A DNA stretch of 64,000 nucleotides from Mustelus asterias (Eukaryota), in NCBI RefSeq assembly GCF_964213995.1, contig NC_135808.1, forward strand, positions 34,534,001 through 34,598,000, written 5' to 3'. Shown here piece after piece: positions 97 to 60,400 of this stretch; position 1 is the stretch's first letter, and each line of letters begins with the position of its first letter. Under the pieces are notes generated by a model, which was not told where the DNA came from, did no database searches, and saw nothing but the letters and a program-made list of their open reading frames with translations. The position numbers were made by a program, and so were the translations under genes.

Positions 97-2890
97 AAGG
101 GTGGTGTAGTTGTATTGTCGCTGGACTAGACCCAGGGTAATGCTCTGGGGACCTGGGTTCAAATCGCACCACAGCAGATAATAAATTCAATTCAATAAAA
201 AAATCTGGAATTAAAAGTGTAATGGTGACCATAAACCATTGCCAAAGTCACTTATGCCCTAAAACCTACCATTTGGTGACTAGGTAAGGACAGTATTGTG
301 ATTGAGTCTTAAATGGCCGAGCAAGACATTCAGTTGTATCCAACCACAGAAAGTCGACCAAATGGAATGAAACTGGACCTGAGCACCAGAAATGACAATG
401 GCAACAAACATCTGTGGGCTTGTGCCAAAGCTGGGAGAGCTGTCTCACAGACTAGTCACACACACAGAATCATAGACAATGTGCCAGACATCACGGTATG
501 TTCACCAGCAGCACTCACCCAATAGAGCTGGCAGCGCGGGGTATACAGTCAGGAGGAAGTTGTCAAGTTTAACCATATCCCATGAGATCAGAGTGAATGG
601 ACCCCATGAGGTGCCATGGCATAAGAGGAAGAAAAGCGCATGCTGTTTGCCACATATATCACCCCCACCTCCAGCTGATGAATCAGTACTCCTCCATGGC
701 AACAAGGGTGCAGAATGTGGCTTGGTAGCACCATTATAATCCTAAAGACTAGATCTTCAGCAGGTGGTGAGGGAAACAACAAGAGGGAAAAACATACCTG
801 ACCTCATCCTCATCAACCAGCCTGCCACAGATGCATCTGTCCCTGACAGTATCGGTAAGAGTGACCACCGCACAGTCCTTGTGGAGACAAAGTCACATCT
901 TCATTTTGAGGATATCCTCTATCGTGTTGTGTGACACTATTGCCATTCTAAATGGGACAGACTTCAAACAGATCGAGCAACTCGAGACAGGGTAACTGCA
1001 GCATCCAGCCACGAATGGTGGTGGACAATTAAACAACTCACTGGTGAAGGAGAAAGCTCCACAAAGGAGCCCAGAACATCAGTGCAAAAGATAAGGCTGA
1101 AGCATTCGCAACAATCTTCAGCCAGAACTGCCAAGTGGATGATGCATCTTGGCCTCTTCCTGTGGTCCCCAACATCACAGATGTGAGTCTCCAGTCAATT
1201 TGATTCACATTATGTGATATCAAGAAATGGCTGAAGGTACTGGATACTGCAAAGGTTATGGACCATATTCTGGCAAAAGATTTGTGCTCCAGAACTTGCC
1301 ACACCCTAGCTAAAGTGTTCCAGTACAGTTACAATACTGTCATCTACCCAACAATGTGGAAAATTGCCCAGGTATGTCCTCTGCACAAAAAGCAGGACAA
1401 ATCCAACCCAACCAATTACCATGCTATCAGTCTACTCTCGATCATCAGTAAAGTGATGGAAGTGGTCATCGACAGTGCTATCAAGCAGCACCTGCTCAGC
1501 AATAAAGTCACCAAAATCCCAGATGACCATAGGCTGTGACTGGTGGTAGTTTAATCTGAGGATCACCACACATTAGGCGAGGGGCAAGGTTGCAAAGGCG
1601 GGGCCTTCTTGAATAACCTCAGCCGTTACAGGAGTTGAACCCACTCTGTTGGTATCGCTTTGCATCACAAACCAGCTTCCAGCCAACTGAACTAAAGTGA
1701 CCCCCTTAGCTCAGCAATAAGCTGCTCAATGATGCTCAGTTTGGGTTCCTCCAGGGTCACTCAACTCTTGACCTCATTACAGCCTTGGTTCAAACATGGA
1801 CAAAAGAGCTGAATTCAGAGGTGAGGTGAGAGTGACTGCCCATGACGTCAAGGCTGCATTTGACTGAGTGTGGCATCAAACTGGAGTCAATGGGAATCAG
1901 GGGGAAAACCCTCTGCTGATTGTAGTTATTGGCACAAAGGAAGATGGTTGTGGTAGTTGGAAGTCAATCATCTCAGTCCCAGGATCTCTCCGCAGGAGTC
2001 CCTCAGGGTAGTGTCCTCGGCCCAACAATCTTCAGCTGCTTCATCAATGACCTTCCCTCTGTCATAAGGTCAGAAGTGGGGATGTTCGCCGATGATTTGA
2101 CAATGTCAGCACCATGCGTGACTCCTCAGTAACTGAGGGCATCCATGTCCAAATGCAGCAAGACCTGAACAATATCCAGGCTTGAACTGACAAGTGGCAA
2201 GTAACATTTGTGCCACAGAAGTGTCAGGCAATGACCATCTCCAGCAAGAGAGGATCTAACCATCACCCCTTGACATTCAATGGCATTACCATATCTGAAT
2301 AGACTACTATCAAAATCCTGGGGGTTATCATTGACCAGAAACTGAACTGGACTATCCATATAAGTACTGTGGCAACCAGACCAGATCAGAGTGAGGAATC
2401 CTGTGGTGAGGAACTCACCTCCTGACTCCCCAAAGCCTGCCCACCATCTACAAGGCACAAGTCAAGCATTTGGTGGAAAAGTCTGCACTTGCCTGGATGA
2501 GTGCAGCTCCAACGACTCAAGATACTCGACACCATCCAGGACAAAGCAGCCCGCTTGATTGCTATCCCATCCACAAACATTCAATCCCTCCACCACTGAT
2601 GAACAGTGACAGCCATGTGTACCATCTACAAGATTCACTGCAGGAACTCACCAAGGTTCTTTTGGCCGAACTTTCCAAATCCATGGCTATTACCATCTAG
2701 AAGGACAAGAGCTACAGATTTCTGGTAGCACCACCACCTGGAGATTTCCCTCCCAAGTCACTCACCATTCTGACTTGGAAATTTATTGCCTTTCTTTCAC
2801 TGTCGCTGGGTCAAAATCTTGGTACTCCCTCCCTATCAGCACTGTGGGTATGCCTGCACCTCAGGGATTGCAGTGATTCAAGAAGGCAGC
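97..2890 (+). mobile_element. Decayed CR1-superfamily LINE (family B) with tRNA-like 5' head
   Basis: Fragmented ORF2 pieces ([28 protein letters not shown]...MFADD). The 5' end has A/B-box-like ggtggtgtagt...ggttcaaatc. The 3' tail resumes at about 3230-3300, after an HE1 SINE. Confidence 0.85.
1506..1708 (-). mobile_element. tRNA-derived SINE (family C) with 12-bp TSD
   Basis: TSD gctcagcaataa at 1494-1505 and 1709-1720. tRNA-like head on the minus strand. Homologous to 12045-12321. Confidence 0.75.
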
Positions 2891-2899
2891 TCAGCACCA

Positions 2900-3232
2900 A
2901 GGTGGTTAGCACTGCTGTCTCACAACACCAGGGACCCGGGTTTAATCCCAGCCTTGGGTGACTGACTGTGTGAAGTTTGCACATTCTCCCCATGTCTGCA
3001 TGGGTTTCCTCTGGGTGCTCCGGTTTCCTCCCACACTCCAAAGATGCGGATTATTTTGACTGGCCATGCTAAATTACCCCTTAGTATCTCAAGATGTGTA
3101 GGTTAGGGGAATTAGTGGGGTATGTGTGGAGTTAGGGGGATAGGGCCTGGGTAGGATTGTTGTCTGTTGGAGAGTAGGTGCAGACTCGATGGGCCAAATG
3201 GCTTTTTCTACACTGTAGGTACTCTATGATTC
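2900..3232 (+). mobile_element. HE1-type V-SINE
   Basis: tRNA head gtggttagcactgctg...gggtttaatcc, V-domain tttgcacattctcccc...ggtttcctcccac, and a CR1/HER1-like 3' tail. Confidence 0.9.
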
Positions 3233-33494: not shown

Positions 33495-36400
33495 TTTTTT
33501 TTAATCCATTTGTGGGACATGGGTGTCGCTGGCTGGCCAGCATTTACTGCCCATCCCTAGTTGCCCTTGAGAAGGTGGTGGTGAGCTGCTGCCTTGAATC
33601 GCCATGTTCTGTGGGTTGACCCACAATGCCGTTCGGGAGGGAATTCCAGGATTTTGACCCAGCGACTGCGAAGGAACGGCAATATATTTCCAAGTCAGGA
33701 TGGTGAGTGGCTTGGAGGGGAACTTGCAGATGGTGGTGTTCACATTTATCTGCTGCCCTTGTCCTTCTAGATGGAAGTGGTCGTGGGTTTGGAAGGTGCT
33801 GTCTAAGGATCTTTGGTGAATTGCTGCAGTACATCTTGTAGATAGTACACACTGCTGCTACGGAACGGTGGAGGGTTTGTAGATGTGGTGCCAATCAAGT
33901 GGGCTGCTTTGTCCTGGATGGTGTCAAGCTTCTTGAGTATTGTTGGAGCTGCACCAATCCAGGTAAGTGGGGAGTATTCCATCACACTCCTGACTTGTGC
34001 CTGGTGGATGGTGGATAGGCTTTGGGGAGTCAGGAGGTGAGTTACTCGTTGCAGTATTCCTAGCCTCTGACCTGCTCTTGTAGCCACTGTGTTTATGTGG
34101 CGAGTCCAGTTGAGTTTCTGGTCAATGATAACCCCAAGGATGTTGACAGTGGGGGATTCAGTGATGATAACACCATTGAATGTTAAGGGGCGGTGGTTAG
34201 AGTGTCTCTTATTGGTGATGGTCATTGCCTGGCATTTGTGTGGCGTGAATGTTACTTGCCACTTGTCAGCCCAAGCCTGGATATTGTCCAGATCTTGTTG
34301 CATTTGAACATGGACTGCTTCAGTATCTGAGGAGTCGCGAATGGTGCTGAACATTGTGCAATCATCGGCGAACATTCCCACTTCTGACCTTATGATGGAG
34401 GGAAGGTCATTGATGAAGCAGCTGAAGATTGTTGGGCCGAGGACACTACCCTGAGGAACTCCTGCAGAGATGTCCTGGAGCTGAGATGACTGACCCTCCA
34501 CAACCACAACCATCTTCCTATGTACCAGGTATGACTCCAACCAGCATGAATTTTCCCCCTGATACCCTTTGATTCCAGTTTGGCTAGGGCTCCTTGATGC
34601 CACACTCGGTCGAATGTGGTCTTGATGTCAAGGACTGTCACTCTCGCCTACCTCTGGAATTCAGCTCTTTTGTCCATGTTAGAACCAAGGCTGTAATGAG
34701 GTCAGGAGCTGAGTGACCCTGACGAAACCCAAACTGGGTGTCACTGAGCAGGTTATTGCTGAGCAGGTGCTGCTTGATAGCACTGTTGATGACCCCTTCC
34801 ATCACTTTACTGATGATCGAGAGTAGACTGATGGCGCGGTAATCAGCCGGGTTGGATTTGTCCTGCTTTGTGTGCACAGGACACACCTGGGCAGTTTTCC
34901 ACATTGTTGGGTAGATGCCAGTGTTGTAACTGTACTGGAAGAGCTTGGCGAGGGGAGCGGCAAGTTCTGGAGCACAAGTCTTCAGTGCTATTGCCGGAAT
35001 GTTATCAGGGCCCATTGCCTTTGCAATATCCAGTGCCTCCAACTGTTTCTTAATATCACGTTGTAGTGGGATCTTTCTCTTTACTCCACTTACAGGCCGG
35101 TATTTGGGGGTCTGCCGATTGCTGCGAGTGTCTCTCTCTTACAGGCCTTGAAATTTCAAAGGCCGGGGAATGCTGCACTGGGGCAACTCCGCAGGAGAGA
35201 GCGCTGAACCAGGCTCACCGTTTATACCTGACCGGTAACCTGATACTTATATCACACAGCCGTCCCAAAACCCCCACCAAGGCCTGAGTGATTCTCTCCC
35301 TTGTCAGTGGGACAACGGCCACCCTGCACCCACTCCACTCGAGTAGGTCTCCAAGAGAGAGAACAGAGAGACTCTGTTCTTTATCTCCTGACCAGCAGTC
35401 TCCCTTGAGTGAGTGGGTTCGAATCACTCAGATCACCCTCGGTTCGAGACTCTGGATTTATGGTAAGGGATATTGAAACTGTGACCTTGTCAGAGTGCGC
35501 TGATGAGAGAACAAGAGGCAAGACGAACTCCAAACGAGTTTCAAAATTTACAGTGATTTATTTAACAATAGAATCAACCTCTCCAATACCACACCACGTA
35601 TGAATAAAACTTATACTTTATACTATCACTATGGGAGAAATGCTAACGGGTACAACGTAAAATCTTACTTTCCACAGTTCAAAACAAGATTACTGAACTT
35701 TAAAATTACAATACATCACCCCTCCCCTTGCCTCAACCTCTATCCTATCCTCGGGAGCTTCACAAGGTTGGCTGGGCTACTCACAATTCTACAAGGGCTC
35801 GAACATCTTAGTGCAGGGTCGAAACTGGGCTGCTGTTGGTCTTCACCTCTGCACATGAGCTTGCGATTCTGGAAGAGAGCTCGGTTTGGCTTGTCTGCCT
35901 CCCTTGATCTTAACTTCAGCCTAATTTAACAACCAACTTCCCTGCCCCCGTAGGTGATTTTCAAGGACAATGGGCTTTCGATCACCGGCAGTCTCGGTTT
36001 AACTGGGTCAAGTCCAAACACAAAAGGCTGGAACTGCCTGGACCCCCATTGGTCGTTATTTCAATGTCTTCTTAATGCTCCTCCGGAGCTTCCTGAACGG
36101 TATCCCATTAGTGGGATGGGTCTTCTTGTCTTCTGTGGATGGGCCGATTTCAGTGGCCATTGTCTCCCTGCTGGCCTGTTTACTGTCTTTTGTCCTTCTG
36201 AAGATTAGGTCACTGGTGTGTCTGCCTTTCTGGCCACTTGCATATTCAGGGGGTCACACCTTTCCTTAGCACAGTCCACAGGCAGCTTATGTTTGTCCTG
36301 CCGAGCCTTCTGGGAGGTTTTATCAGCCAGCAGCCAGAGTTGGCCACTTTTAAACTGTCAGGTTTCTCCTGAGTCCTTTTAAAACATGGAGGATTGCCCT

Positions 36401-37495
36401 GAAACTTACAATGTGGAGTGAATCGAATTGGCTGGAGACTAGCATCTGAGATGCTGGGGACCACTGCTGGAGGCCGAGATGGATCATCGGCACTTCTGGC
36501 TGAAGATTGTTGCGAATACTTCAGCCTTATCTTTTGCACTGATGTTCTGGGTTCCTTCATCATTGAGGATGGGGATATTTGTGGAGCCGCTGCCTCCAGT
36601 GAGTTGTTTAATTGTCCACCACTGGATGTGGAAGAACTGCGAGCTTAGATCTGATCCGTTGGTTGTGGGATCGCTTAGCTCTGTCTATCACTTGCTGTTT
36701 TTGCCATTTGGAATGCAAGTAGTCCTGTTTGGTAGCTTTAACAGGTTGACAGTTCATTGTTAGGTATGCCTGGTGCTGATCCTGGCATGCCCTCCTGCAC
36801 TCTCCATTGAACCAGGGTTGATCCTCTGGCTTGATGTTAATGGTTGAATGGGGGATGTGTCGGGCCATGAGGTTGCAGATTGTGCTGGAGTACAGTTCCA
36901 CTGCTCTTGATGGCTCACAGCGCCTCATGGATGCCCAGTCTTGAGTTGCTAGATCGGTTCGAAGTCTGTCCCATTTAGCACGGTGATCGTGCCACACAAC
37001 ACAATGGAGGTTATTCTCAATGTGAAGTCAGGACTTCGTCTCCACAGGGACTGTGCGGTGGTCACTCTTACCGATACTGTCATGGACAGATGCATCTGCA
37101 GCCGGCAAGTTGGTAAGGATGAGGTCAAGGATGTTTTTTCCTCTTGTTGGTTCCTTCACCACCTGCTGCAGACCCAGTCTAGCAGTTATATCCTTTCGGA
37201 CCCGACCAGCTCGATCAGTAGTGCTGCTGCCGAGCCACTCTTGGTGGTGGACATTGAAATCTCCCACCCAGAGTACGTTTTGCGCCCTTGCCACCCTCAG
37301 TGCTTCCTCCAAGTGTTGTTCAACATGGAGGAGTACTGATTCGTCAGCCGAAGGAGGATGGTACGTGGTAACCAGTAAGAGGTTTCCTTATCCATGTTTA
37401 ACCTGAAGTCATGAGACTTCATGGGGTCCAGAGTCAATGTTAAGGACTCCCAGGGCAACTCCCTCCCGACTGTACACCACTGTGCTGCCACCTTT
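33495..37495 (-). mobile_element. LINE family B, long copy (endonuclease + RT + tail), interrupted by a solo LTR
   Basis: ORFs 37028-37312 (GDFNVHH, LDL, SDH), 36608-36997, 34638-35042 and 33803-34603 (PQGS, FADD). Poly(A) at 33495-33502. Confidence 0.9.
35062..36410 (-). mobile_element. Solo LTR (1349 bp)
   Basis: TGTA...TACA termini. 4-bp TSD acgt (35058-35061) / atgt (36411-36414). The host LINE is restored on removal. Orientation is inferred from an AATAAA on the minus strand near 35560. Confidence 0.75.
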
Positions 37496-43077: not shown

Positions 43078-44305
43078 GCTAGACTGCGACAGGTGGAGAG
43101 AGAAAAACATCCTTGATCTCATCCTCACCAACCTACTTGCCGCAGATGCATCTGTCCATGATAGTATTGGTAAGAGTGACCACCGCACAGTCCTTGTGGA
43201 CAGGAATTAATCTTCACATTGAGAATACCCTCCATCATGATGTGTAGCACTATCACCGAGCTAATTGGGATAGCCTTCGAACAGATCTAGCACCAAAAGA
43301 CTGGGAATCCATGAGGCGTTGTGCACCATCACTCGCATTAGAATTGTACTCAACTGCAATCTGTAGTCTCATGGCCCGGTATATCCCCCATTCTACCATT
43401 ATCACCAAGCCAGCGATCGACCCTGGTTCATTAAAGAGTGCAGGAGGGCATGCCACGAGCAGCACCAGCCATAACTAAAAATGAGGTGTCCAGCCGGTGA
43501 AGTTACAACTTAGTATTGTTTGTATGCCAAACAACTTCAGCAACAAGTGATAGACAGCTAAATTATTCCACAACGAACAGATTGGATTTAAGCTCTGCAA
43601 TCCTGCCACATCCAGTTGTGAATGATGGTGGACAATTAAACAACTCGCTGGAGGAGGAGTTTCCACAAATATCCCCATCCTCGATAATGGGGGAGCCCAG
43701 CACATCAGTGTAAAATATTGAGGCAATGCTCTGAAGAATTTGCAATAATCATCAGCCAAAGTGGCCAAAATGGCACTTCACAGCAATAGCCTGCTCACTG
43801 ATGCTCAGCTTGGGTTCCACCATGGGTCACTCAGCTCCTGACCTCATTATAGCCTTGGTTTAAAATTGAACAAATGAGCTGAACTCCAGATGTGGTGAGG
43901 CTAACTGCCCTTAACAGCATTTTACCAAGTGTGGCATCAAGGAGCCCTTGGGAAACTGGAATCAATGGGTATCGGGGCAAACACTCTGCTGGTTGGAGTC
44001 ATACCTGGTACATAGGAAGATGGTTGTGGTTGTGGAGGGTCAGTCATCTCGGATCCAGGACATCACTGCCGGAGTCCCTCAGGGTAGTGTCCTAGGCTCA
44101 ACAATCTTCAGCTACTTCATCAATGACCTTCCCTCCATCATAAGGTTAGAAGTGGGAATGTTCGCCGATGATTGCACAATGTTCAGCACCATTCGTGACT
44201 CCTCAGATACAGAAGAAATCCATGTCCAAATACAGCGAGACCTGGATAATCCAGGCTTGGGCTGGCAAGTGGCAAGCAAGGTTCACGCCTCAAGTGCCAG
44301 GCAAT
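43078..44305 (+). mobile_element. LINE family B fragment
   Basis: ORF 43948-44307 ([13 protein letters not shown]), collinear with 33803-37312. Confidence 0.85.
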
Positions 44306-44498: not shown

Positions 44499-47400
44499 GG
44501 GCCAGATTTTATCATTTTCATTCTAAGTGCTGTTTATCATTTTCATTCTAAGTGCTGATTCTGGGCGCAGTACAGATCCGACTCAGAAATCCGCTTTCAG
44601 GTGCCCCCATACACTCTCAGCCATCTCCAGTACGATTCGCGCTGTGGGCGGGGCTTAGCAGAAAGCAGAGAAAGCGGCCCAGGAGCAAAAAGTGGCTGCG
44701 AGGGTGTATCTCGGTGTTGGGGGGGGGGGGGGCAGATGGATCTCTGGTGGGGGGGGGGGGGAGAGCAGATGGATCTCTGGGGGGGGGGGGCAGATGAATC
44801 TCGGGTGGGGTGGGGGGTGGGGGGGCAGATGGATCTCTGGTGGGGGGGGCAGGGGGGTCCGCTGCCACTCTGCGGGCGATTGGAGGGGGCAGGGGTGGCG
44901 GTAGGTCTGGGTGGGGGGGGATGCTGATTTTTAGCTCTCAAGGATCTACTTCCATTCTTTTTTTCACGCCCAGAACTGTTTCATGGTGAGGGTTTTCTCT
45001 GGAGACCTGCCCTCAAGTGCAAGCTCGGCGAATCTTCCAACATCATTTCAAATCTGCACCGTTTGGAACTTTCTGTCCAAGTGCAAGCTCCCACACACAT
45101 TCCTCTTCTGTGGTTGGTCCCTTGTTGCTCTCCCCGACAAGTCCACCACCCCCCCACTACCCAGACCGATCACCCGCAGAGTGGCAGCAGACCCCCCTGC
45201 CCCCCCACCAGAGATCCATCGGCCCCCCCACCAGAGATCCATCGGCCCCCCCCCACCAGAGATCCATCGGCCCCCCCCCACCAGAGATCCATCGGCCCCC
45301 CCCCACCAGAGATCCATCGGCCCCCCCCCACCAGAGATCCATCGGCCCCCCCCCACCAGAGATCCATCGGCCCCCCCCACCAGAGATCCATCGGCCCCCC
45401 CCACCAGAGATCCATCGGCCCCCCCCACCAGAGATCCATCGGCCCCCCCCACCAGAGATCCATCGGCCCCCCCCACCAGAGATCCATCGGCCCCCCCACC
45501 AGAGATCCATCGGCCCCCCCCACCAGAGATCCATCGGCCCCCCCCACCAGAGATCCATCGGCCCCCCCCACCAGAGATCCATCGGCCCCCCCCACCAGAG
45601 ATCCATCGGCCCCCCCCACCAGAGATCCATCGGCCCCCCCACCAGAGATCCATCTGCCCCCCCACCAGAGATCCATCTGCCCCCCCCACCAGAGATCCAT
45701 CTGCCCCCCCACCAGAGATCCATCTGCCCCCCCCACCAGAGATCCATCTGCCCCCCCACCAGAGATCCATCTGCCCCCCCCACCAGAGATCCATCTGCCC
45801 CCCCCACCAGAGATCCATCTGCCCCCCCCACCAGAGATCCATCTGCCCCCCCCACCGGAGATCATCTGCCCCCCCCCATCGGAGATGCATCTGCCCCCCC
45901 CCATCGGAGATGCATCTGCCCCCCCCCATCGGAGATGCATCTGCCCCCCCCATCGGAGATGCATCTGCCCCCCCCCCACCGGAGATGCATCTGCCCCCCC
46001 CCACCGGAGATGCATCTGCCCCCCCCCCACCGGAGATGCATCTGCCCCCCCCCCCACCGGAGATGCATCTGCCCCCCCCCCCCACCGGAGATGCATCTGC
46101 CCCCCCACCCCCCACCGGAGATGCATCTGCCCCCCCCCCCCCCACCGGAGATGCATCTGCCCCCCCCCCCCCACCGGAGATGCATCTGCCCCCCCCCCCC
46201 CACCGGAGATGCATCTGCCCCCCCCCCCCCACCGGAGATGCATCTGCCCCCCCCCCCCACCGGAGATGCATCTGCCCCCCCCCCCCCACCGGAGATGCAT
46301 CTGCCCCCCCCCCCCCCACCGGAGATGCATCTGCCCCCCCCCCCCCACCGGAGATGCATCTGCCCCCCCCCCCCACCGGAGATGCATCTGCCCCCCCCCC
46401 CTACCGGAGATGCATCTGCCCCCCCCCCCACCGGAGATGCATCTGCCCCCCCCCCCACCGGAGATGCATCTGCCCCCCCCCCCCACCGGAGATGCATCTG
46501 CCCCCCCCCCACCGGAGATGCATCTGCCCCCCCCCCCACCGGAGATGCATCTGCCCCCCCCCCCCACCGGAGATGCATCTGCCCCCCCCCCCACCGGAGA
46601 TGCATCTGCCCCCCCCCACCGGAGATGCATCTGCCCCCCCCACCCCCACCGGAGATGCATCTGCTCCCCCCCCCACCGGAGATGCATCTGCCCCCCCCCC
46701 CCCACCGGAGATGCATCTGCCCCCCCCCCCCCCACCGGAGATGCATCTGCCCCCCCCCCCACCGGAGATGCATCTGCCCCCCCCCACCGGAGATGCATCT
46801 GCCCCCCCCCCCCCACCGGAGATGCATCTGCTCCCCCCCCCCCACCGGAGATCCATCAGCCCCCCCCCCCCCCCCCCCCACCAGAGATAGATACATCTTA
46901 CCCACCTCCCCGCCCCCCCCCCCCCCCCCCATGCAATGATCTGGCTCACTCCCCCCCCCCCCCCCCCCCCAGACGGTGATCTGGCCTCATCCTTTTCCTC
47001 CCCCCCACCCCCACTCCAACCAGACAGCGATTGCCCCCCCCCACCAGAGATACATCTGACCCGCCGCCTCCTCTTCCCCTCCCCCCCCCCCCCCCCCCCC
47101 CACAAACAACGATCTGACCCGCCTCCCCCTCCCCCCCAACAACTGATCTGAGCCAGAGACACCGAAAACATTGGAAACACTGAACGTGCTCTTCAGAGTT
47201 CTTCGGACTTTTATTTTGCAGACCCCTAAAAGCGCGGTTCCGGTTTGGTAAACGCAGTGGTAAAGGGGGAAATGATGATAGAGTTGGGCGGGCAGTTCAT
47301 TAATTCAATTTAAATGCATGCAAATGCATTTAAATCGTCCTTGCGCCCGATTTGGGTGCGGAACGGATCCCCGCCATTCGCAGGTCTCGGTAAAGTGGCA

Positions 47401-53020: not shown

Positions 53021-54300
53021 GGGTAAGTACATGTGGAGCATAAGCTGTGTGTATCATTAACATTCCTGGAAGTGACTGTCAACCAAAGTCCCTTTTCCTG
53101 ATTGTTGGTCACTGAACCCCTGCAGCAATATACACAAATATGGATAATGAATGAGCTTGGCTGTTATACCCCTTATTAACTCTTACACAGAAAGAACTGT
53201 TACTTCCATAACATGCAGGATAGTTTCCCTCGAGAGGCTTCAGGAGAAGGAACACTTTCCCTTTCTGATATTACTTTGCAGTTACACCATAACACTGTAA
53301 TAAAACAACCAGCTTTAAAAACCTTTCAAGCCTTTCTCCCCATTGGCAGTATTACTGGCCATATATTAACCCTTAGAAGTGAATATTTTTAAGGTCGAGG
53401 CAGATAGATTCTTAGTAAGTAAGGGGGTGAAAGGTTATCTGGGGTCAGTGAAATGCAGATTTGAGATTACGATCAGATCAAATCATTGAATGGTGGAGCA
53501 AGCTCGAGGGGCCAAATGACCTATTCCACTTTGTATGTACAGTAATATTTCTGTACATTATGAAAGTAGCTTCAGAAGATGAGCGATATTAAATATGGGG
53601 ATATGCTCGAGGCCACCAAATAGTGGGAAGGAGTTAGAGGAACAGATTTAGAGACAAATTACAGAAAGAAGTGAAAGTTACAGAATGATGATGGTGAGAC
53701 TTTTCAATTATCCTCATAGAACATTACAGCGCAGTACAGGCCCTTCGGCCCTCGATGTTGCGCCGACCTGTGAAACCAATCTAAAGCTCCTCTAATCTAC
53801 ACTATTCCAATATCATCCATATGTTTATCCAATAACCATTTGAATGCTCTTAATGTTGGCGAGTCCACTACTGCTGCAGGCAGGGCATTCCACGCCCTTA
53901 CTACTCTCTGAGTAAATAACTTACCTTTGACATCTGTCCTATATCTATCACCCCTCAATTTAAAGCTATGTCCCCTTGATACGCATCAATTGGACACGAG
54001 GCACGAAGCTTCGGTAAAAGAAGGCTTTTATTAACTAACAATGGAACAACAGAACTTTAACACACTATCCCAGACTGAAGAGGTCCCGCCCGAGCAGGGG
54101 GTCTTATACCTCTCCCAGGAGGCGGAGCCCGACTGGGATGTGCCACAACAGTAACAACCACAGGTGTATCAATCCCATCCTAACCCAACAACAACATTAG
54201 AACAATCCCACAGTGGGAACCAACGATGGTTCACCACATTCACCCCTCCTTTGAGAACAAAGGCCGGCGAGGTACGAAAACAGACTAAAATGTCAACAGA

Positions 54301-56991
54301 TTATAAGTTCAGACGGTCTGGAGGACCGCACCATCGTTGTGACCTCCTCAATACCGGCGGTGACACCGGAGTAGGTGCTTGCGGTGGCGTTCTCCCCAAA
54401 ACAGCGTCCAGCTGTTCTCCCACGGACTCACAGGCCGGTTGACCCTGATGAAATGGTAGTGCAGGGGATCCCGATACATTCTGCGATGGCGCCGATCTTC
54501 GGGGCTCAGGCAAGCTGTGCATTGGAGTAAAACTGTTAAGCACTGGTCCCGGTGCTGTCCGCGCCATGTCTGGGGGAGAAATAAGGGATAAGGGATTCGT
54601 CACTGGGGGTATGGGAGCGACAGGAGTTGCTACGTCCCCTGCAGGCGCCAGGTCTCGGATCGAGACTGTGTCCTCTCGCCCGTCAGGATATGCCACATAG
54701 GCATACTGAGGGTTGGCGTGGAGGAGGTGGACCTGTTCGACCAAGGGGTCGGACTTGCGGGCCCTTACATGTCGCCGCAGAAGGACGGGTCCTGGGTACG
54801 TCAACCAGGCTGGTAAAGATATCCCCGAGGACGACTTCCGAGGGAATGAGAACATCCTCTCGTGGGGAGTAGCATTGGTTGCCGTACACAGGAGGGAGCG
54901 AATGGAGTGAAGCGCATCAGGGAGGACCTCCTGCCAACGGGAGACTGGAAGGCCTTTGGACTTCAGCGCCAATAGGACAGCCTTCCAGACTGTAGCATTC
55001 TCTCTTTCCACCTGTCCATTGCCCCTAGGGTTGTAACTCGTGGTCCTACTAGAGGCAATCCCGTATGAGAGCAGGAATTGCCTCAAGTCATTACTCATGA
55101 ACGACGAGCCCCTGTCGCTATGGATATAGCTGGGGTACCCGAACAGGGTAAAAAGATCACGGAATGCCTTGATCACCGTGGCAGTCGACATGTCCGCGCA
55201 GGGGACAACAAACGGGAACCGGGAGTACTCATCTATTATGTTCAGAAAGTACACGTTCCGATCTGTTGAGGGAAGGGGGCCCTTAAAATCCACACTCAGC
55301 CTCTCGAAGGGGCGCATATGGTCTGGATCAGGGCCAATGACCCCGTTTTCCACCACGTATCCCAGGATGACTAACCGGCGCGTACGGAATACACACTTCT
55401 CCCTGTTGTAGGTCAAATTCAGGCGAGATGCAGTGCGTAAAAAGTTCTGGAGATTTGTGTCATGGTCCTGCTGATCACAGCCGCAGATGGTGACATTATC
55501 CAGGTACGGGAAGGTAGCCCGCAGCCTGTTCTGGTCCACCATTCGGTCCATAGCACGCTGGAAGACCGAGACCCCATTGGTGACACCAAATGGAACCCTA
55601 AGAAACTGATATAGACGACCATCCGCCTCAAAGGCCGTGTAGTGTCGGTCCTCTGGGCGAATGGGGAGTTGGTGGTAGGCGGACTTAAGGTCTATGGTGG
55701 AGAACACCCGGTACTGCGCAATCTGATTGACCATATCAGATATGCGCGGGAGGGGATACGCATCCAGCTGCGTATATCGGTTAATGGTCTGACTGTAATC
55801 AATGACCATCCAGGGTTTGTTCCCGCTCTTGACCACCACAACCTGTGCTCTCCACGGACTAACACTGGGCTGTATGATCCCTTCTTTGAGGAGTCGCTGA
55901 ACCTCAGATCTGATGAAGATCCGATCTTCAGTGCTGTAACGCCTACTTTTAGTAGCGATGGGCTTGCAGCCTGGTACCAGATTCTTGAATAAAGAGGGTG
56001 TGGTGATCTTTAATGTAGAAAGATTGCAGGCGGGGCGCTTTGGACAATTTGGAGACTGCAGCTGTTCCCCCACTGTCAGCGAAGGGAGTGGCCCACCGTA
56101 CTGTAGGATCACACTCTTCATGTGGACCATAAAGTTTAGTCCGAGGAGAATTGGTGCGCAAAGATGCGGCAACACAAGGAGCCTGAATCGCTCGTAAATT
56201 GTGCCTTGCACTTTCAAAGTTACCACACAACGTCCTAGCACAGGGACAGACCGGGACCTTGATGCCATAGAGATTGTCTGTTTGGCAGGTTGAATCTGGA
56301 GTCCACACCTCTTTACAGTGTCAGGGTGAATAAAGCTCTCAGTGCTCCTGCTGTCAAACAGACAATAAATTGCACGACCATTTACCTGTATATCCATCAT
56401 CGAACAATCAAGCCTGTGATGCTTAGCCTGGTTTAGGGTGATTGACGCCACCGTTGGTCCGTGAACGTCACTGCAGGCAGCTGAGGTCGATGCTGAGGAC
56501 CCCTGCTGGTCGCTCATGGTCATCGTCGACCAAAATGGCCGCCCCCATGAATCGCACATGGGTGAGGGCTTAAAACGTAGCGACTCCTGGTGGTCATCCT
56601 CCTCCGACTCCGTCGACCGCAATGGCGTCGTCCTGGACTCGCACGTGGACGAACCCCGTGAGTACTTTGACGACGATGGTGATGATCCCCATTCCGAAGG
56701 GTCACAGGCCGCACTGCTGTTCTTGGGCTTCGATCTGCACACCTTCGCATAATGCCCCTTTTTACCGCATAGGTTACAGACTACCGCTTTAGCGGGACAC
56801 TTTTGTCGTGGATGCTTGGCTCCTCCGCAGAAGTAGCACCGCGGGCCGCATGGGGCTGCAGCCGTCGTCTGGTCCACATGGGAGCACGCCATAACACTGC
56901 GCTTCGAGCCCGTGGGGCGAGGAGGGATTTGTGACTGCTCCTGCCACGTGGTCCTCCGGATACAGGACCAAGCTCTTCGAAGCCGCCTCAA
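54301..56991 (-). CDS. Gypsy gag C-terminus/pol: 2 CCHC knuckles, protease, RT, integrase core (RNase H absent)
   Basis: CYFCGGAKHPRQKC, CNLCGKKGHYAKVC, LFDSRSTESF, IDLKSAYHQ, VPFG, YLDN, SVDFKGP, HSDRGSSF, NGQVERENA. Confidence 0.93.
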   Translation of the reverse strand: MRRLRRAWSCIRRTTWQEQSQIPPRPTGSKRSVMACSHVDQTTAAAPCGPRCYFCGGAKHPRQKCPAKAVVCNLCGKKGHYAKVCRSKPKNSSAACDPSEWGSSPSSSKYSRGSSTCESRTTPLRSTESEEDDHQESLRFKPSPMCDSWGRPFWSTMTMSDQQGSSASTSAACSDVHGPTVASITLNQAKHHRLDCSMMDIQVNGRAIYCLFDSRSTESFIHPDTVKRCGLQIQPAKQTISMASRSRSVPVLGRCVVTLKVQGTIYERFRLLVLPHLCAPILLGLNFMVHMKSVILQYGGPLPSLTVGEQLQSPNCPKRPACNLSTLKITTPSLFKNLVPGCKPIATKSRRYSTEDRIFIRSEVQRLLKEGIIQPSVSPWRAQVVVVKSGNKPWMVIDYSQTINRYTQLDAYPLPRISDMVNQIAQYRVFSTIDLKSAYHQLPIRPEDRHYTAFEADGRLYQFLRVPFGVTNGVSVFQRAMDRMVDQNRLRATFPYLDNVTICGCDQQDHDTNLQNFLRTASRLNLTYNREKCVFRTRRLVILGYVVENGVIGPDPDHMRPFERLSVDFKGPLPSTDRNVYFLNIIDEYSRFPFVVPCADMSTATVIKAFRDLFTLFGYPSYIHSDRGSSFMSNDLRQFLLSYGIASSRTTSYNPRGNGQVERENATVWKAVLLALKSKGLPVSRWQEVLPDALHSIRSLLCTATNATPHERMFSFPRKSSSGISLPAWLTYPGPVLLRRHVRARKSDPLVEQVHLLHANPQYAYVAYPDGREDTVSIRDLAPAGDVATPVAPIPPVTNPLSLISPPDMARTAPGPVLNSFTPMHSLPEPRRSAPSQNVSGSPALPFHQGQPACESVGEQLDAVLGRTPPQAPTPVSPPVLRRSQRWCGPPDRLNL

Positions 56992-57490
56992 GCATTTCAG
57001 CTAATTCCATAGCTTGGGTCAGGTTGAGATTTCCCTTTTCTAGCAGCTTGAGACAGATGTATGAAGACCCGACCCCGGCCACAAACGCATCTCGGGCGAG
57101 GTCGTACATGCTCTGCTCAGCCGACACAGCTTTGCAGTCACAGCCCCTGGCTAGCTGCAAGAGCTCATTGGCGTAATCCTCCATGGTTTCGCCCGACTGC
57201 CGACGTCGTGTAGCGAGGAGGTAACGAGTGTGGATCTCGTTGGGAGGTTTCGTATAGCGCTTTTTTAAAAGCTCGAGGGCCCTCGGGTAAGTGGTGGCCG
57301 CACGGATCGCGAGGTAGACTGTGTCGCTTACCCTCGCATGGAGAACCCGGAGTCTGTCATCATCTGTGGTGACCGCTGCGGAGGCTGCCAGGTAATCTTC
57401 AAAACACTTCAGCCAGTGGTCGAAGATGTTAGAAGCGCCCACCGCACGTGGATCTAGCGTCAGACGTTCTGGCTTTAGGATTTGCTCCAT
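56789..57490 (-). CDS. Gypsy gag N-terminal part (frameshifted near 56945)
   Basis: FDHWLKCFEDY...RRRQSGETMEDYANEL...RDAFVAG is a typical Gypsy capsid (Q-xx-E-x-x-x-x-Y/F) motif. Confidence 0.85.
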   Translation of the reverse strand: MEQILKPERLTLDPRAVGASNIFDHWLKCFEDYLAASAAVTTDDDRLRVLHARVSDTVYLAIRAATTYPRALELLKKRYTKPPNEIHTRYLLATRRRQSGETMEDYANELLQLARGCDCKAVSAEQSMYDLARDAFVAGVGSSYICLKLLEKGNLNLTQAMELAEMLEAASKSLVLYPEDHVAGAVTNPSSPHGLEAQCYGVLPCGPDDGCSPMRPAVLLLRRSQASTTKVSR

Positions 57491-60400
57491 ACTCTCCTTT
57501 CTTTTTTTTCTTCTGTCGAGAGTTTAATGTTAGTTAATAAAATTGATGCGCATCAATTGGACACGAGGCACGAAGCTTCGGTAAAAGAAGGCTTTTATTA
57601 ACTAACAATGGAACTAACAGAACTTTAACACACTATCCCAGACTGAAGAGGTCCCACCCGAGCAGGGGGTCTTATACCTCTCCCAGGAGGCGGAGCCCGA
57701 CTGGGATGTGCCACAACAGTAACAACCACAGGTGTATCAATCCCGCCCTAACCCAACAACAACATTAGAACAACCCAACAACAACATTAGAACAATCCCA
57801 CAGTGGGAACCAACGATGGTTCACCACACCCCTCGTGCTAGCCATCACCATCCGAGGAGAAAGGCTCTCACTATCCACCCTATCTAATCCTCTGATCATC
57901 TTGTATGCCTCTATTAAGTCACCTCTTAACCTTCTTCTCTCTAACGAAAACAACCTCAAGTCCCTCAGCCTTTCCTCATAAGACCTTCCCACCATACCAG
58001 GCAATATCCTAGTAAATCTCCTCTGCACCCTTTCCAATGCTTCCACATCCTTCCTATAATGCGGTGACCAGAACTGTACGCAATACTCCAAATGCGGCCG
58101 CACCAGAGTTTTGTACAGTTACAGCATGACCTCCTGGCTCCGAAACTCAATCCCTCTACCAATAAAAGCTAACACACCGTACGCCTTCTTAACAACCCTA
58201 TCAACCTGGGTGCCAACTTTCAGGAATCTATGCACATGGACACCGAGATCTCTCTGTTCATCCACACTACCAAGTATCTTACCATTAGCCCAGTACTCTG
58301 TATTCCTGTTACTCCCTCCAAAGTGAATCACCTCACACTTTTCCACATTGAACTCCATTTGCTACCTCTCAGCCCAGCTCTGCAGCTTATCTGTGTCTTC
58401 TGTAACCTGCAACAACCTTCCACATTGTCCATAACTCCACCAACTTTAGTGTCATCCGCAAATTTACTAACCCATCCTTCTACGCCTCATCCAGGTCATT
58501 TATAAAAATGACAAACAGCAGTGGCCCCAAAACAGATCCTTGCGGTACACCACTAGTAACTGAACTCCAGGATAAACATTTCCCATCAACCACTACCCTC
58601 TGTCTTCTTACAGCTAGCCAATTCCTGATCCAAACCGCTAAACCACCCTCAATCCCATGCGTCCGTATTTTCTGCAATAGCTTACCGTGGGGAACCTTAT
58701 CAAACGCTTTACTGAAATCCATATACACCACATCAACTGCTTTAGCCTCATCCACCTCTTTGGTCACCTTCTCAAAGAACTCAATAAGGTTTGTGAGGCA
58801 TGACCTACCTTCACAAAACCGTGTTGACTATCCCTAATCAAATTGTTCCTTTCTAGATGATTATAAATCCCATCTCTTATAATCCTTTCCAAAACTTTGC
58901 CCACAACAGAAGTAAGGCTCACTGGTCTATAATTACCAGGGTTGTCTCTACTCCTCTTCTTGAACAAGGGGACAACATTTGCTATCCTCCAGTCTTCTGG
59001 CACTATTCCTGTAGACAATGACGACATAAAGATCAAAGCCAAAGGCTCTGCAATCTCCTCCCTAGCCTCCCAGAGAATCCTGGGATAAATCCCATCCGGT
59101 CCAGGGGATTTATCTATTTTCACACTTTCCAGAATTGCTAACACCTCCTCCTTATTAACCTCAATCGCGCCTAGTCCAATAGCCTGTATCTCAGTATTCT
59201 CCTCGACAACATTGTCTTTTACCTGCGTGAATACTGACAAAAAATATTCATTTAGTGCCTCTCCTATCTCTTCAGACTCCACGCACAACTTCCCACTACT
59301 GTCCTTGACTGGCCCTAATCTTACCCTCGTCATTCTTTTATTCCTGACATACCTATAGAAAGTTTTAGAGTTTTCCTTGATCCTACCTGCCAAAGACTTC
59401 TCATGTCCCCTCCTGGCTCTTCTTAACTCTCTTTTTAGGTCCATCCTGGCTAACTTGTAACTCTCAAGCACCCTAACTGAGCCTTCACGTCTCATCTTTA
59501 CATAAGTCTCCTTCTCCCTCTTCACAAGAGATTCAACTTCTTTAGTAAACCATGGTTCCCTCGCTCGGCCACTTCCTCCCTGCCTGACAGGTACATACTT
59601 ATCAAGGACACGCAGTAGCTGTTCCTTGAACAAGCTCCACATTTCAATTGTGCCCATCCCCTGCAGTTTCCTGTCCCAACCTATGCCAGCTAAATCTCAC
59701 CTAATTGCATCATCATTTCCTTTCCCCCAGCTATAACTCTTGCCCTTCGGTATATACCTATTCCTTTCCATCGCTAAAGTAAACGGAACCGAATTGTGGT
59801 CACTATCACCAAAGTGCTCACCTACCTCCAAATCTAACACCTGGTCTGGTTCATTACCCAGTACCAAATCCAATGTGGCCTCGCCTCTTGTTGGTCTATC
59901 TACATACTGTGTCAGGAAATCCTCCTGCACACATTGGACAAAAACTGACCCCTCTAAAGTACTCGAACTATAGCTTTTTCAGTCAATATTTGCAAAGTTA
60001 AAGTCCCTCATAACAACTACCCTGTTACTTTCGCTCCGATCCAGAATCATCTTTGTAATCCTTTCCTCTACATCACTGGAACTTTTCAGAGGCCTATAGA
60101 AAACTCCCAACAGGGTGACCTCTCCTTTCCTGTTTCTAACCTCAGCCCAAACTACCTCAGTAGACGAGTCCTCAAACGTCCTTTCTGCCACCGTAATACT
60201 GTCCTTGACTAACAATGCCACACCTCCCCCTCTTTTACCACCTTCCCTGTTCTTACTGAAACATCTAAACCTCGGAACCTGCAACAACCATTCCTGTCCC
60301 TGCTCTGTCCATGTCTTCAAGATAGCCACAACATCGAAGTCCCAGGTACCAACCCATGCTGCAAGTTCACCCACCTTATTCCGGATGCTCCTGGCGTTGA

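Follow-up and report, generated by a model that had tools for sequence, protein, structure and literature searches.

Self-priming is usually regarded as a speciality of Tf1/sushi chromoviruses. Elements that start reverse transcription without a tRNA site include Tf1 and Tf2 of Schizosaccharomyces pombe, Tj1, Tosmo1–3 and the Tf1/sushi group (PMC7175516, PMC4600332, PMC10085805, PMC5341516). According to the cited sections, the Tf1 primer comprises the first 11 nt of the RNA, and RNase H cleaves Tf1 RNA where a duplex comparable to the one described below ends (PMC7175516). Self-priming has also been predicted for plant Tcn1 (Ty3/gypsy) and TAR (Ty1/copia), the criterion being at least 10 nt complementary to the LTR and starting 0–5 nt after it (PMC6317226). 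HIV-1, which has a tRNA primer, carries a polyA hairpin at both RNA ends; it holds AAUAAA in a paired region near the RNA 5' end and represses 5' polyadenylation (PMC2645353, cited sections). Among animal lineages, Saci2 has tRNA-type sites (PMC12471100), and mollusc clades including the Mag lineage, Cigr-1 and MolGy are named without primer data in the cited part of PMC6238403. Searches of the open-access literature turned up no account of a non-chromoviral animal Gypsy lineage that primes itself.

Here we analyse a Ty3/gypsy element of Mustelus asterias that displays a chromovirus-type trait, namely, a primer site complementary to a stretch of its own LTR (the arm) and not to a tRNA. As in Tf1/sushi elements, the tRNA site is absent, CA forms the end of the LTR, the post-LTR position has its pairing partner in RNA derived from the LTR, and a cut at the duplex edge would be a natural source of a 3' OH. 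By contrast, no chromodomain is present, and the arm is 12–18 nt long, has the poly(A) signal at its end and follows the predicted transcript start at a distance of about 37 nt, whereas the Tf1 primer, as described in the cited sections, is the RNA 5' end itself. The complementarity agrees with the criterion used for Tcn1 and TAR, although these belong to other lineages and hosts, and, as far as the cited sections of PMC6317226 go, the link to the poly(A) signal is particular to the present element. AAUAAA is paired near the RNA 5' end as in HIV-1, but here its partner is the primer site, found at the 5' end only. Our best reading of these sequences is that the element would operate in a Tf1-like manner, but in a group without a chromodomain and with a primer ending 50–53 nt behind the predicted start.

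The element and its primer site

The window, a 64,000-nt stretch of M. asterias contig NC_135808.1, holds the Ty3/gypsy element on its minus strand, from 57828 to 53977, with the following features.

57829..57833, minus strand: target site duplication AGGGG, upstream copy, within a host repeat that we take to be LINE-type from the look of its protein
57544..57828, minus strand: 5' LTR, TG...CA, 285 nt, with its CA end at 57544
57774..57795, minus strand: extra 22-nt copy of the U3 repeat, without counterpart in the 3' LTR
57670..57676, minus strand: predicted TATA box, present in 8/8 own-genome representatives
57641..57646, minus strand: predicted initiator-like TCAGTC, start A at 57644, 32 nt behind the TATA box
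57593..57607, minus strand: LTR arm, 15 nt, predicted as the likely self-primer
57590..57592, minus strand: GCC directly behind the arm, predicted cut between 57593 and 57592
57571..57580, no strand: 10-nt palindrome, subfamily-specific
57541..57558, no strand: 18-nt palindrome across the LTR edge, subfamily-specific
57543..57543, minus strand: spacer A between LTR and primer site, 1 nt, A in 20/20 families
57528..57542, minus strand: primer-binding-site position, complement of the LTR arm, without TGG
56789..57490, minus strand: gag from ATG, frame broken in the window copy ahead of two CCHC knuckles
54301..57000, minus strand: two CCHC knuckles, protease, RT and integrase core, pol frame
54239..54252, minus strand: polypurine tract with AA at its end, followed by the 3' LTR
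53977..54238, minus strand: 3' LTR, 262 nt, second arm copy at 54026-54040
53972..53976, minus strand: target site duplication AGGGG, downstream copy, 5 bp

TG...CA LTRs, a target duplication and a polypurine tract are all present, as expected of Ty3/gypsy, and the best solved relative is Ty3. The window copy has the order PR-RT-IN, and RNase H lies between RT and IN in four of the five relatives scanned; the remaining one is a compound protein. Compared with a longer copy, a deletion of ~790 nt near 55310 has removed RNase H and the integrase zinc finger; since RNase H is lost, the window copy is dead. No chromodomain is found in the window copy, in any of the five relatives scanned or in the precomputed domains of 120 listed relatives. 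The LTR begins with TGTGGYG as in the CsRn1 clade, but CsRn1 elements, as described in the cited sections, have a site for tRNA-Trp, duplicate 4 bp of the target and carry a CHCC motif in Gag (PMC2582038, PMC3601003). Membership of this clade is rejected in view of the missing TGG (207/207 loci), the 5-bp duplications and the two CCHC knuckles.

The position of the LTR end at CA is supported by solo LTRs and full copies, which show 5-bp duplications directly after CATCA. The two LTRs differ by four mismatches and by one 22-nt repeat unit. This U3 repeat occurs in 1–3 copies (window 57752-57800; LTRs of loci L031-L060), and LTRs across the family measure about 262, 284 or 306 nt; because the copy number varies, the two LTRs of a single element can differ in length.

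A sequence-only reading of this DNA had proposed that the leader is a 15-nt complement of the poly(A) region of its own LTR. Indeed, 57528-57542 and 57593-57607 are exactly reverse-complementary, with no further match beyond either end, whereas the longest match in 2000 dinucleotide shuffles of the LTR reaches 11 nt at most. The hexamer AATAAA is where that reading had placed it, within the arm, where it occupies 57599-57594 and leaves one base to the arm's 3' end. The string it quoted after the LTR is likewise complementary, but it is one letter too long: the first A of its 16 letters (57543) is the unpaired spacer. The 3' LTR carries the arm (54026-54040) but, as it had noted, no adjoining partner. 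The possibility that the arm is a copy-specific rearrangement is rejected, because the junction CA-A-TTTTATT is common to 30/30 of the closest copies; moreover, the complementarity persists in diverged families. An Rfam scan of 57350-57900 returned one chance match far below the cut-off and no tRNA-like family.

Both palindromes pointed out by the same reading are perfect in the window, but neither is conserved. The 18-nt palindrome occurs in 1/22 representatives and is broken even in the element's own 3' LTR. A role of the palindromes as dimerisation signals is rejected on this ground.

Covariation of arm and primer site across families

Searching the M. asterias genome (3.68 Gb) with the LTR-leader piece gave 3229 candidates, of which 40 were scored and 30 of these examined; two diverged gag proteins and two DNA sequences, used as queries, led to more families of this genome. 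In each further family the letters of the arm differ and the primer site changes along with them; one, for instance, has ATTAAA in the arm and TTTAAT in the primer site. Pairing is perfect over the first 12 nt in 109/138 own-genome loci, which include 13 different 12-mers. Furthermore, within one family, represented by 87 copies picked with a pattern that leaves the variable positions free, two segregating sites covary between arm and primer site (79/85 copies against 41.9 expected, and 82/85 against 53.6). The primer site thus covaries with its own LTR both across and within families, which is the compensatory change that the sequence-only reading had put forward as a check. A fixed tRNA or tRNA-half primer is rejected, albeit indirectly, as the site varies with the LTR and 13 paired variants coexist in one genome: neither primer could have followed such changes of arm and site.

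To these loci we added relatives from metagenome contigs, where 142 were found, 80 were kept in the gag alignment (32–41% identity) and 69 had a usable gag start. The resulting 207 loci fall into 32 clusters at 80% gag identity; merging seven single-copy clusters into the families to which they evidently belong gives 25 families, 6 from the own genome and 19 from metagenomes. The best-pairing copy represents each family (in one case another member), and the search was scored on Watson-Crick pairs. At least 12 of 13 positions are paired in 20/25 families (6/6 own genome, 14/19 metagenome), a score never reached in 1500 shuffles put through the same fitted search. When primer sites are compared with the LTRs of other families, 12 pairs are reached in 12/380 combinations and 13 in 0/380. 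The five families below the threshold have 9–11 of 13 positions paired, two of them with less than 120 nt of upstream sequence. TGG is absent within 5 nt of the anchored LTR end in all 207 loci, and no relative with a canonical TGG site is among them, in agreement with the original claim that this element lacks a tRNA site. The CA-A-TTT junction was verified against the second LTR in five metagenome families; 29 loci were long enough for this comparison, 10 of them having no second LTR in reach.

The 20 paired families share a strict geometry. Positions 1–12 are Watson-Crick pairs in 240/240 cells, with no G-U, an absence that is partly built into the search, also when applied to the shuffles. 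The three positions past the arm's 3' end are paired in 0/60 cases, and pairing drops from 15/20 families at position 15 to 6/20 at position 16. The spacer is A in 20/20, although the loop spans 24 to 72 nt. RCC follows directly behind the arm in 19/20 families and never pairs with the LTR end, and position 10, counted from the duplex end, is a G-C pair in 18/20, despite a one-base shift of the hexamer between the own genome and the metagenome families. The register follows the LTR end and the duplex edge rather than the hexamer, which ends one base earlier in the own genome than in metagenome families, is missing in canonical form from 4/20 arms and has a copy in the loop in 3/20 families. 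In 67 distinct arm/site pairs, G-U does not outnumber A-C (12 against 16). These counts fit templated copying followed by decay better than selection on an RNA helix, a comparison to be read with caution because Watson-Crick pairs were given preference in the anchor search.

What the sequences show directly is the pairing, its register and the covariation; the complementarity is clade-wide, surviving complete sequence turnover. By comparison of the loci, tRNA-independent priming is well supported, given the fixed register, the strict covariation and the missing TGG in 207/207 loci. This part of the sequence-only reading is therefore supported, and neither of the two refutations that it had named, judged indirectly in the case of the tRNA, counts against it. 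The closest named gag and RT relatives come from sharks and rays, and cnidarians, a crustacean, an insect and a nematode are also represented by name among the RT relatives. Viral contigs yielded 48 pattern matches, none of them a relative. In the metagenome families L121, L133, L151 and L182, the gag ATG lies 0–3 nt after the primer site, and whole elements measure only 4.0–4.5 kb.

Fold-back insertions

Four genome searches (5, 5, 7 further and 21) recovered 38 fold-back insertions in which U5-CA-A is joined to the complement of the arm, whereas controls with the backwards pattern gave 0 matches. The reciprocal junction, tested in one family, also gave 0 matches. Structurally, such an insertion consists of LTR-CA-A followed by an inverted LTR from the arm to its first base, that is, a by-product with two U3 ends (loci L201-L210, L213, L214, L216, L220, L221 and L360-L379, most with clean 5-bp target duplications). 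In the largest family, 18/19 fold-backs with both ends have exact 5-bp target duplications, which indicates insertion by integrase. Of 37 fold-backs, 31 cross the predicted start site and reach the first base of the LTR (L204 could also be a deletion), four stop after 22–33 nt, and two (L202 and L213) run on into the polypurine tract and integrase, so that a 3'-end template is needed for them.

Use of the junction in the course of reverse transcription is thus shown by the fold-backs. As template switching across any 15-bp inverted repeat can also make them, they are no proof of priming, nor do they settle whether the 5' or the 3' arm primes. In L203, L213 and L221, the two LTR halves come from different templates, differing at variants common to other copies. 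However, in the largest family the halves of 19 fold-backs differ only once at four lineage-marking sites, which fits snap-back of plus strong-stop DNA ending in a copy of the primer site. Accordingly, fold-backs as proof of a 3' or second-RNA primer are not upheld in the largest set. In the family of L233, LTR positions -175 and -86 are non-CpG sites that differ both ways between fold-back halves and may be mutation hot spots.

Three loci have unusual junctions. L211 and L212 (junction at about 1505) have a normal gag start and a leader complementary to the LTR for 22–23 nt instead of 15, as if primer copying had overshot. At L220 (junction at about 1505), where only one LTR is present, six bases complementary to the U5 end take the place of the five behind the arm, and the target duplication is exact.

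Candidate primers and possible poly(A) masking

From these patterns we infer the start site, the cut, the identity of the primer and the masking of the poly(A) signal. Self-priming in some form is highly probable from the comparison. As to its course, we lean, with modest confidence, towards a duplex that primes reverse transcription after a Tf1-like cut at its edge in the 5' LTR. The transcript would start near 57644; the arm, 50 nt upstream of the primer site, would pair with it while the RNA is being made, and cleavage by the element's own RNase H would follow where the duplex ends (AAAA|GCC). The capped piece so released, about 52 nt long, would offer a 3' end from which synthesis proceeds across the spacer A and U5, and the resulting strong-stop DNA (about 50 nt) would then jump to the RNA's 3' end, onto the 10–30 nt between the arm and the poly(A) site. 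Finally, plus-strand synthesis would copy the primer, just as the retroviral plus-strand primer site is a copy of the primer (PMC7472051, figure legend), and the primer site would be rewritten from the arm in every cycle, which would explain why the two stay perfectly complementary. The duplex would often hide AAUAAA of the 5' LTR as well, but this would be a by-product and not its reason.

In 8/8 own-genome representatives, the predicted TATA box and initiator are spaced 31–37 nt and lie 50–53 nt before the arm's end, and thus the arm is predicted to be internal to the RNA. Structure prediction pairs the primer site with the 5' arm 50 nt away; the folding z-score of the whole leader is only -1.76. 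For these two reasons, an internal arm and its fold with the site, the 5' cut is preferred over the 3' arm, a 15-nt primer or masking alone. Linkage over the 87 copies of one family, which bears on the first strand transfer, reveals few discordant copies, possibly later mutations, at few diagnostic U5 sites. In partial tests, the three-duplex pretzel of Tf1 was not found as a conserved fold, and a short helix right behind the arm, seen in many metagenome families, reached P ≤0.05 in 4/16 and was absent in the eight own-genome representatives. Where predicted, this statistically weak helix has the form RCC(U)...(A)GGY and is stacked on the duplex edge (L121, L123, L126, L127, L132, L182, L186 and others).

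Alternatively, the arm of the 3' LTR might prime, either on the same RNA, circularised, or from a second packaged RNA, after being cut or trimmed to the end of AAUAAA(A). Although we regard it as unlikely, this course would give a reason for the coincidence of the arm's end with the poly(A) signal, and 16/20 arms do end at, or one base behind, AATAAA/ATTAAA. It is also favoured by the extension of L202 and L213 past U3, by the differing halves of L203, L213 and L221, and by the observation that none of 37 fold-backs ends at the predicted start site, which is at the same time a counterpoint to a capped 52-nt primer. The 5' arm, however, is at hand within 50 nt and pairs with the site in the predicted structure, the near-identity of the halves in 19 fold-backs fits plus strong-stop snap-back, and L221 differs only between start site and arm, where a 5' fragment fits as well. 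It is similarly doubtful that this large animal Gypsy lineage uses the poly(A)-signal stretch at the 3' end of its own or a co-packaged RNA as primer, in a route that evolved independently of Tf1.

The exact Tf1 geometry, in which the reverse-transcribed RNA would start at the arm's first base and provide a primer of ~15 nt, with the TATA box and initiator serving another transcript or none, seems improbable. It accounts for the drop in pairing between positions 15 and 16, as if a primer of about 15 nt had been copied, and alternative start sites are used by Tf2 (PMC5341516, cited sections). Nevertheless, the constant spacing and placement of the TATA box and initiator in 8/8 representatives speak against it, as do L211 and L212, whose longer complementarity, followed by a normal leader, suggests a primer longer than the arm. 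Least probable is a duplex that mainly masks the 5' LTR poly(A) signal as in HIV-1, some host RNA or a nick priming elsewhere. The partner arm is indeed found only next to the 5' LTR, a canonical hexamer is present in 16/20 arms, and repression by the HIV-1 hairpin, as reported in the cited sections, offers a precedent (PMC2645353). However, masking would tolerate wobble pairs and does not call for a constant 1-nt offset from the LTR end, 4/20 arms lack AATAAA/ATTAAA, three of the 20 families have a canonical hexamer in the loop, outside the duplex, and no other primer site is seen. Poly(A) masking is thus possible for the 16 families with a canonical hexamer, but would not be obligatory.

If priming from the duplex is correct, a second Gypsy lineage, without a chromodomain, would have escaped from tRNA priming, implying that this escape arose again or is ancient. 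Its scale may be considerable, with thousands of candidate matches in this genome and protein relatives from rays to cnidarians, a crustacean, an insect and a nematode. Such elements would present no tRNA site for silencing by 3'-tRNA fragments. The CA-A spacer, the A|RCC edge and the G-C pair at position 10 form an invariant frame that provides exact, testable coordinates of primer and cut, as well as a simple rule for annotation tools that currently require a tRNA site. Much hangs on which end of the RNA supplies the primer: should the 3' arm prime, 3'-end formation and priming would share one sequence, a route unlike that of Tf1.

Apart from the element, the window contains a long C-rich minisatellite (44685-47192, unit of about 24–30 nt), bordered on the left by an inverted G-rich block, and one dispersed repeat in long, partly inverted copies (746-3046, 33600-37200 and 43100-44250) that are 82–91% alike.
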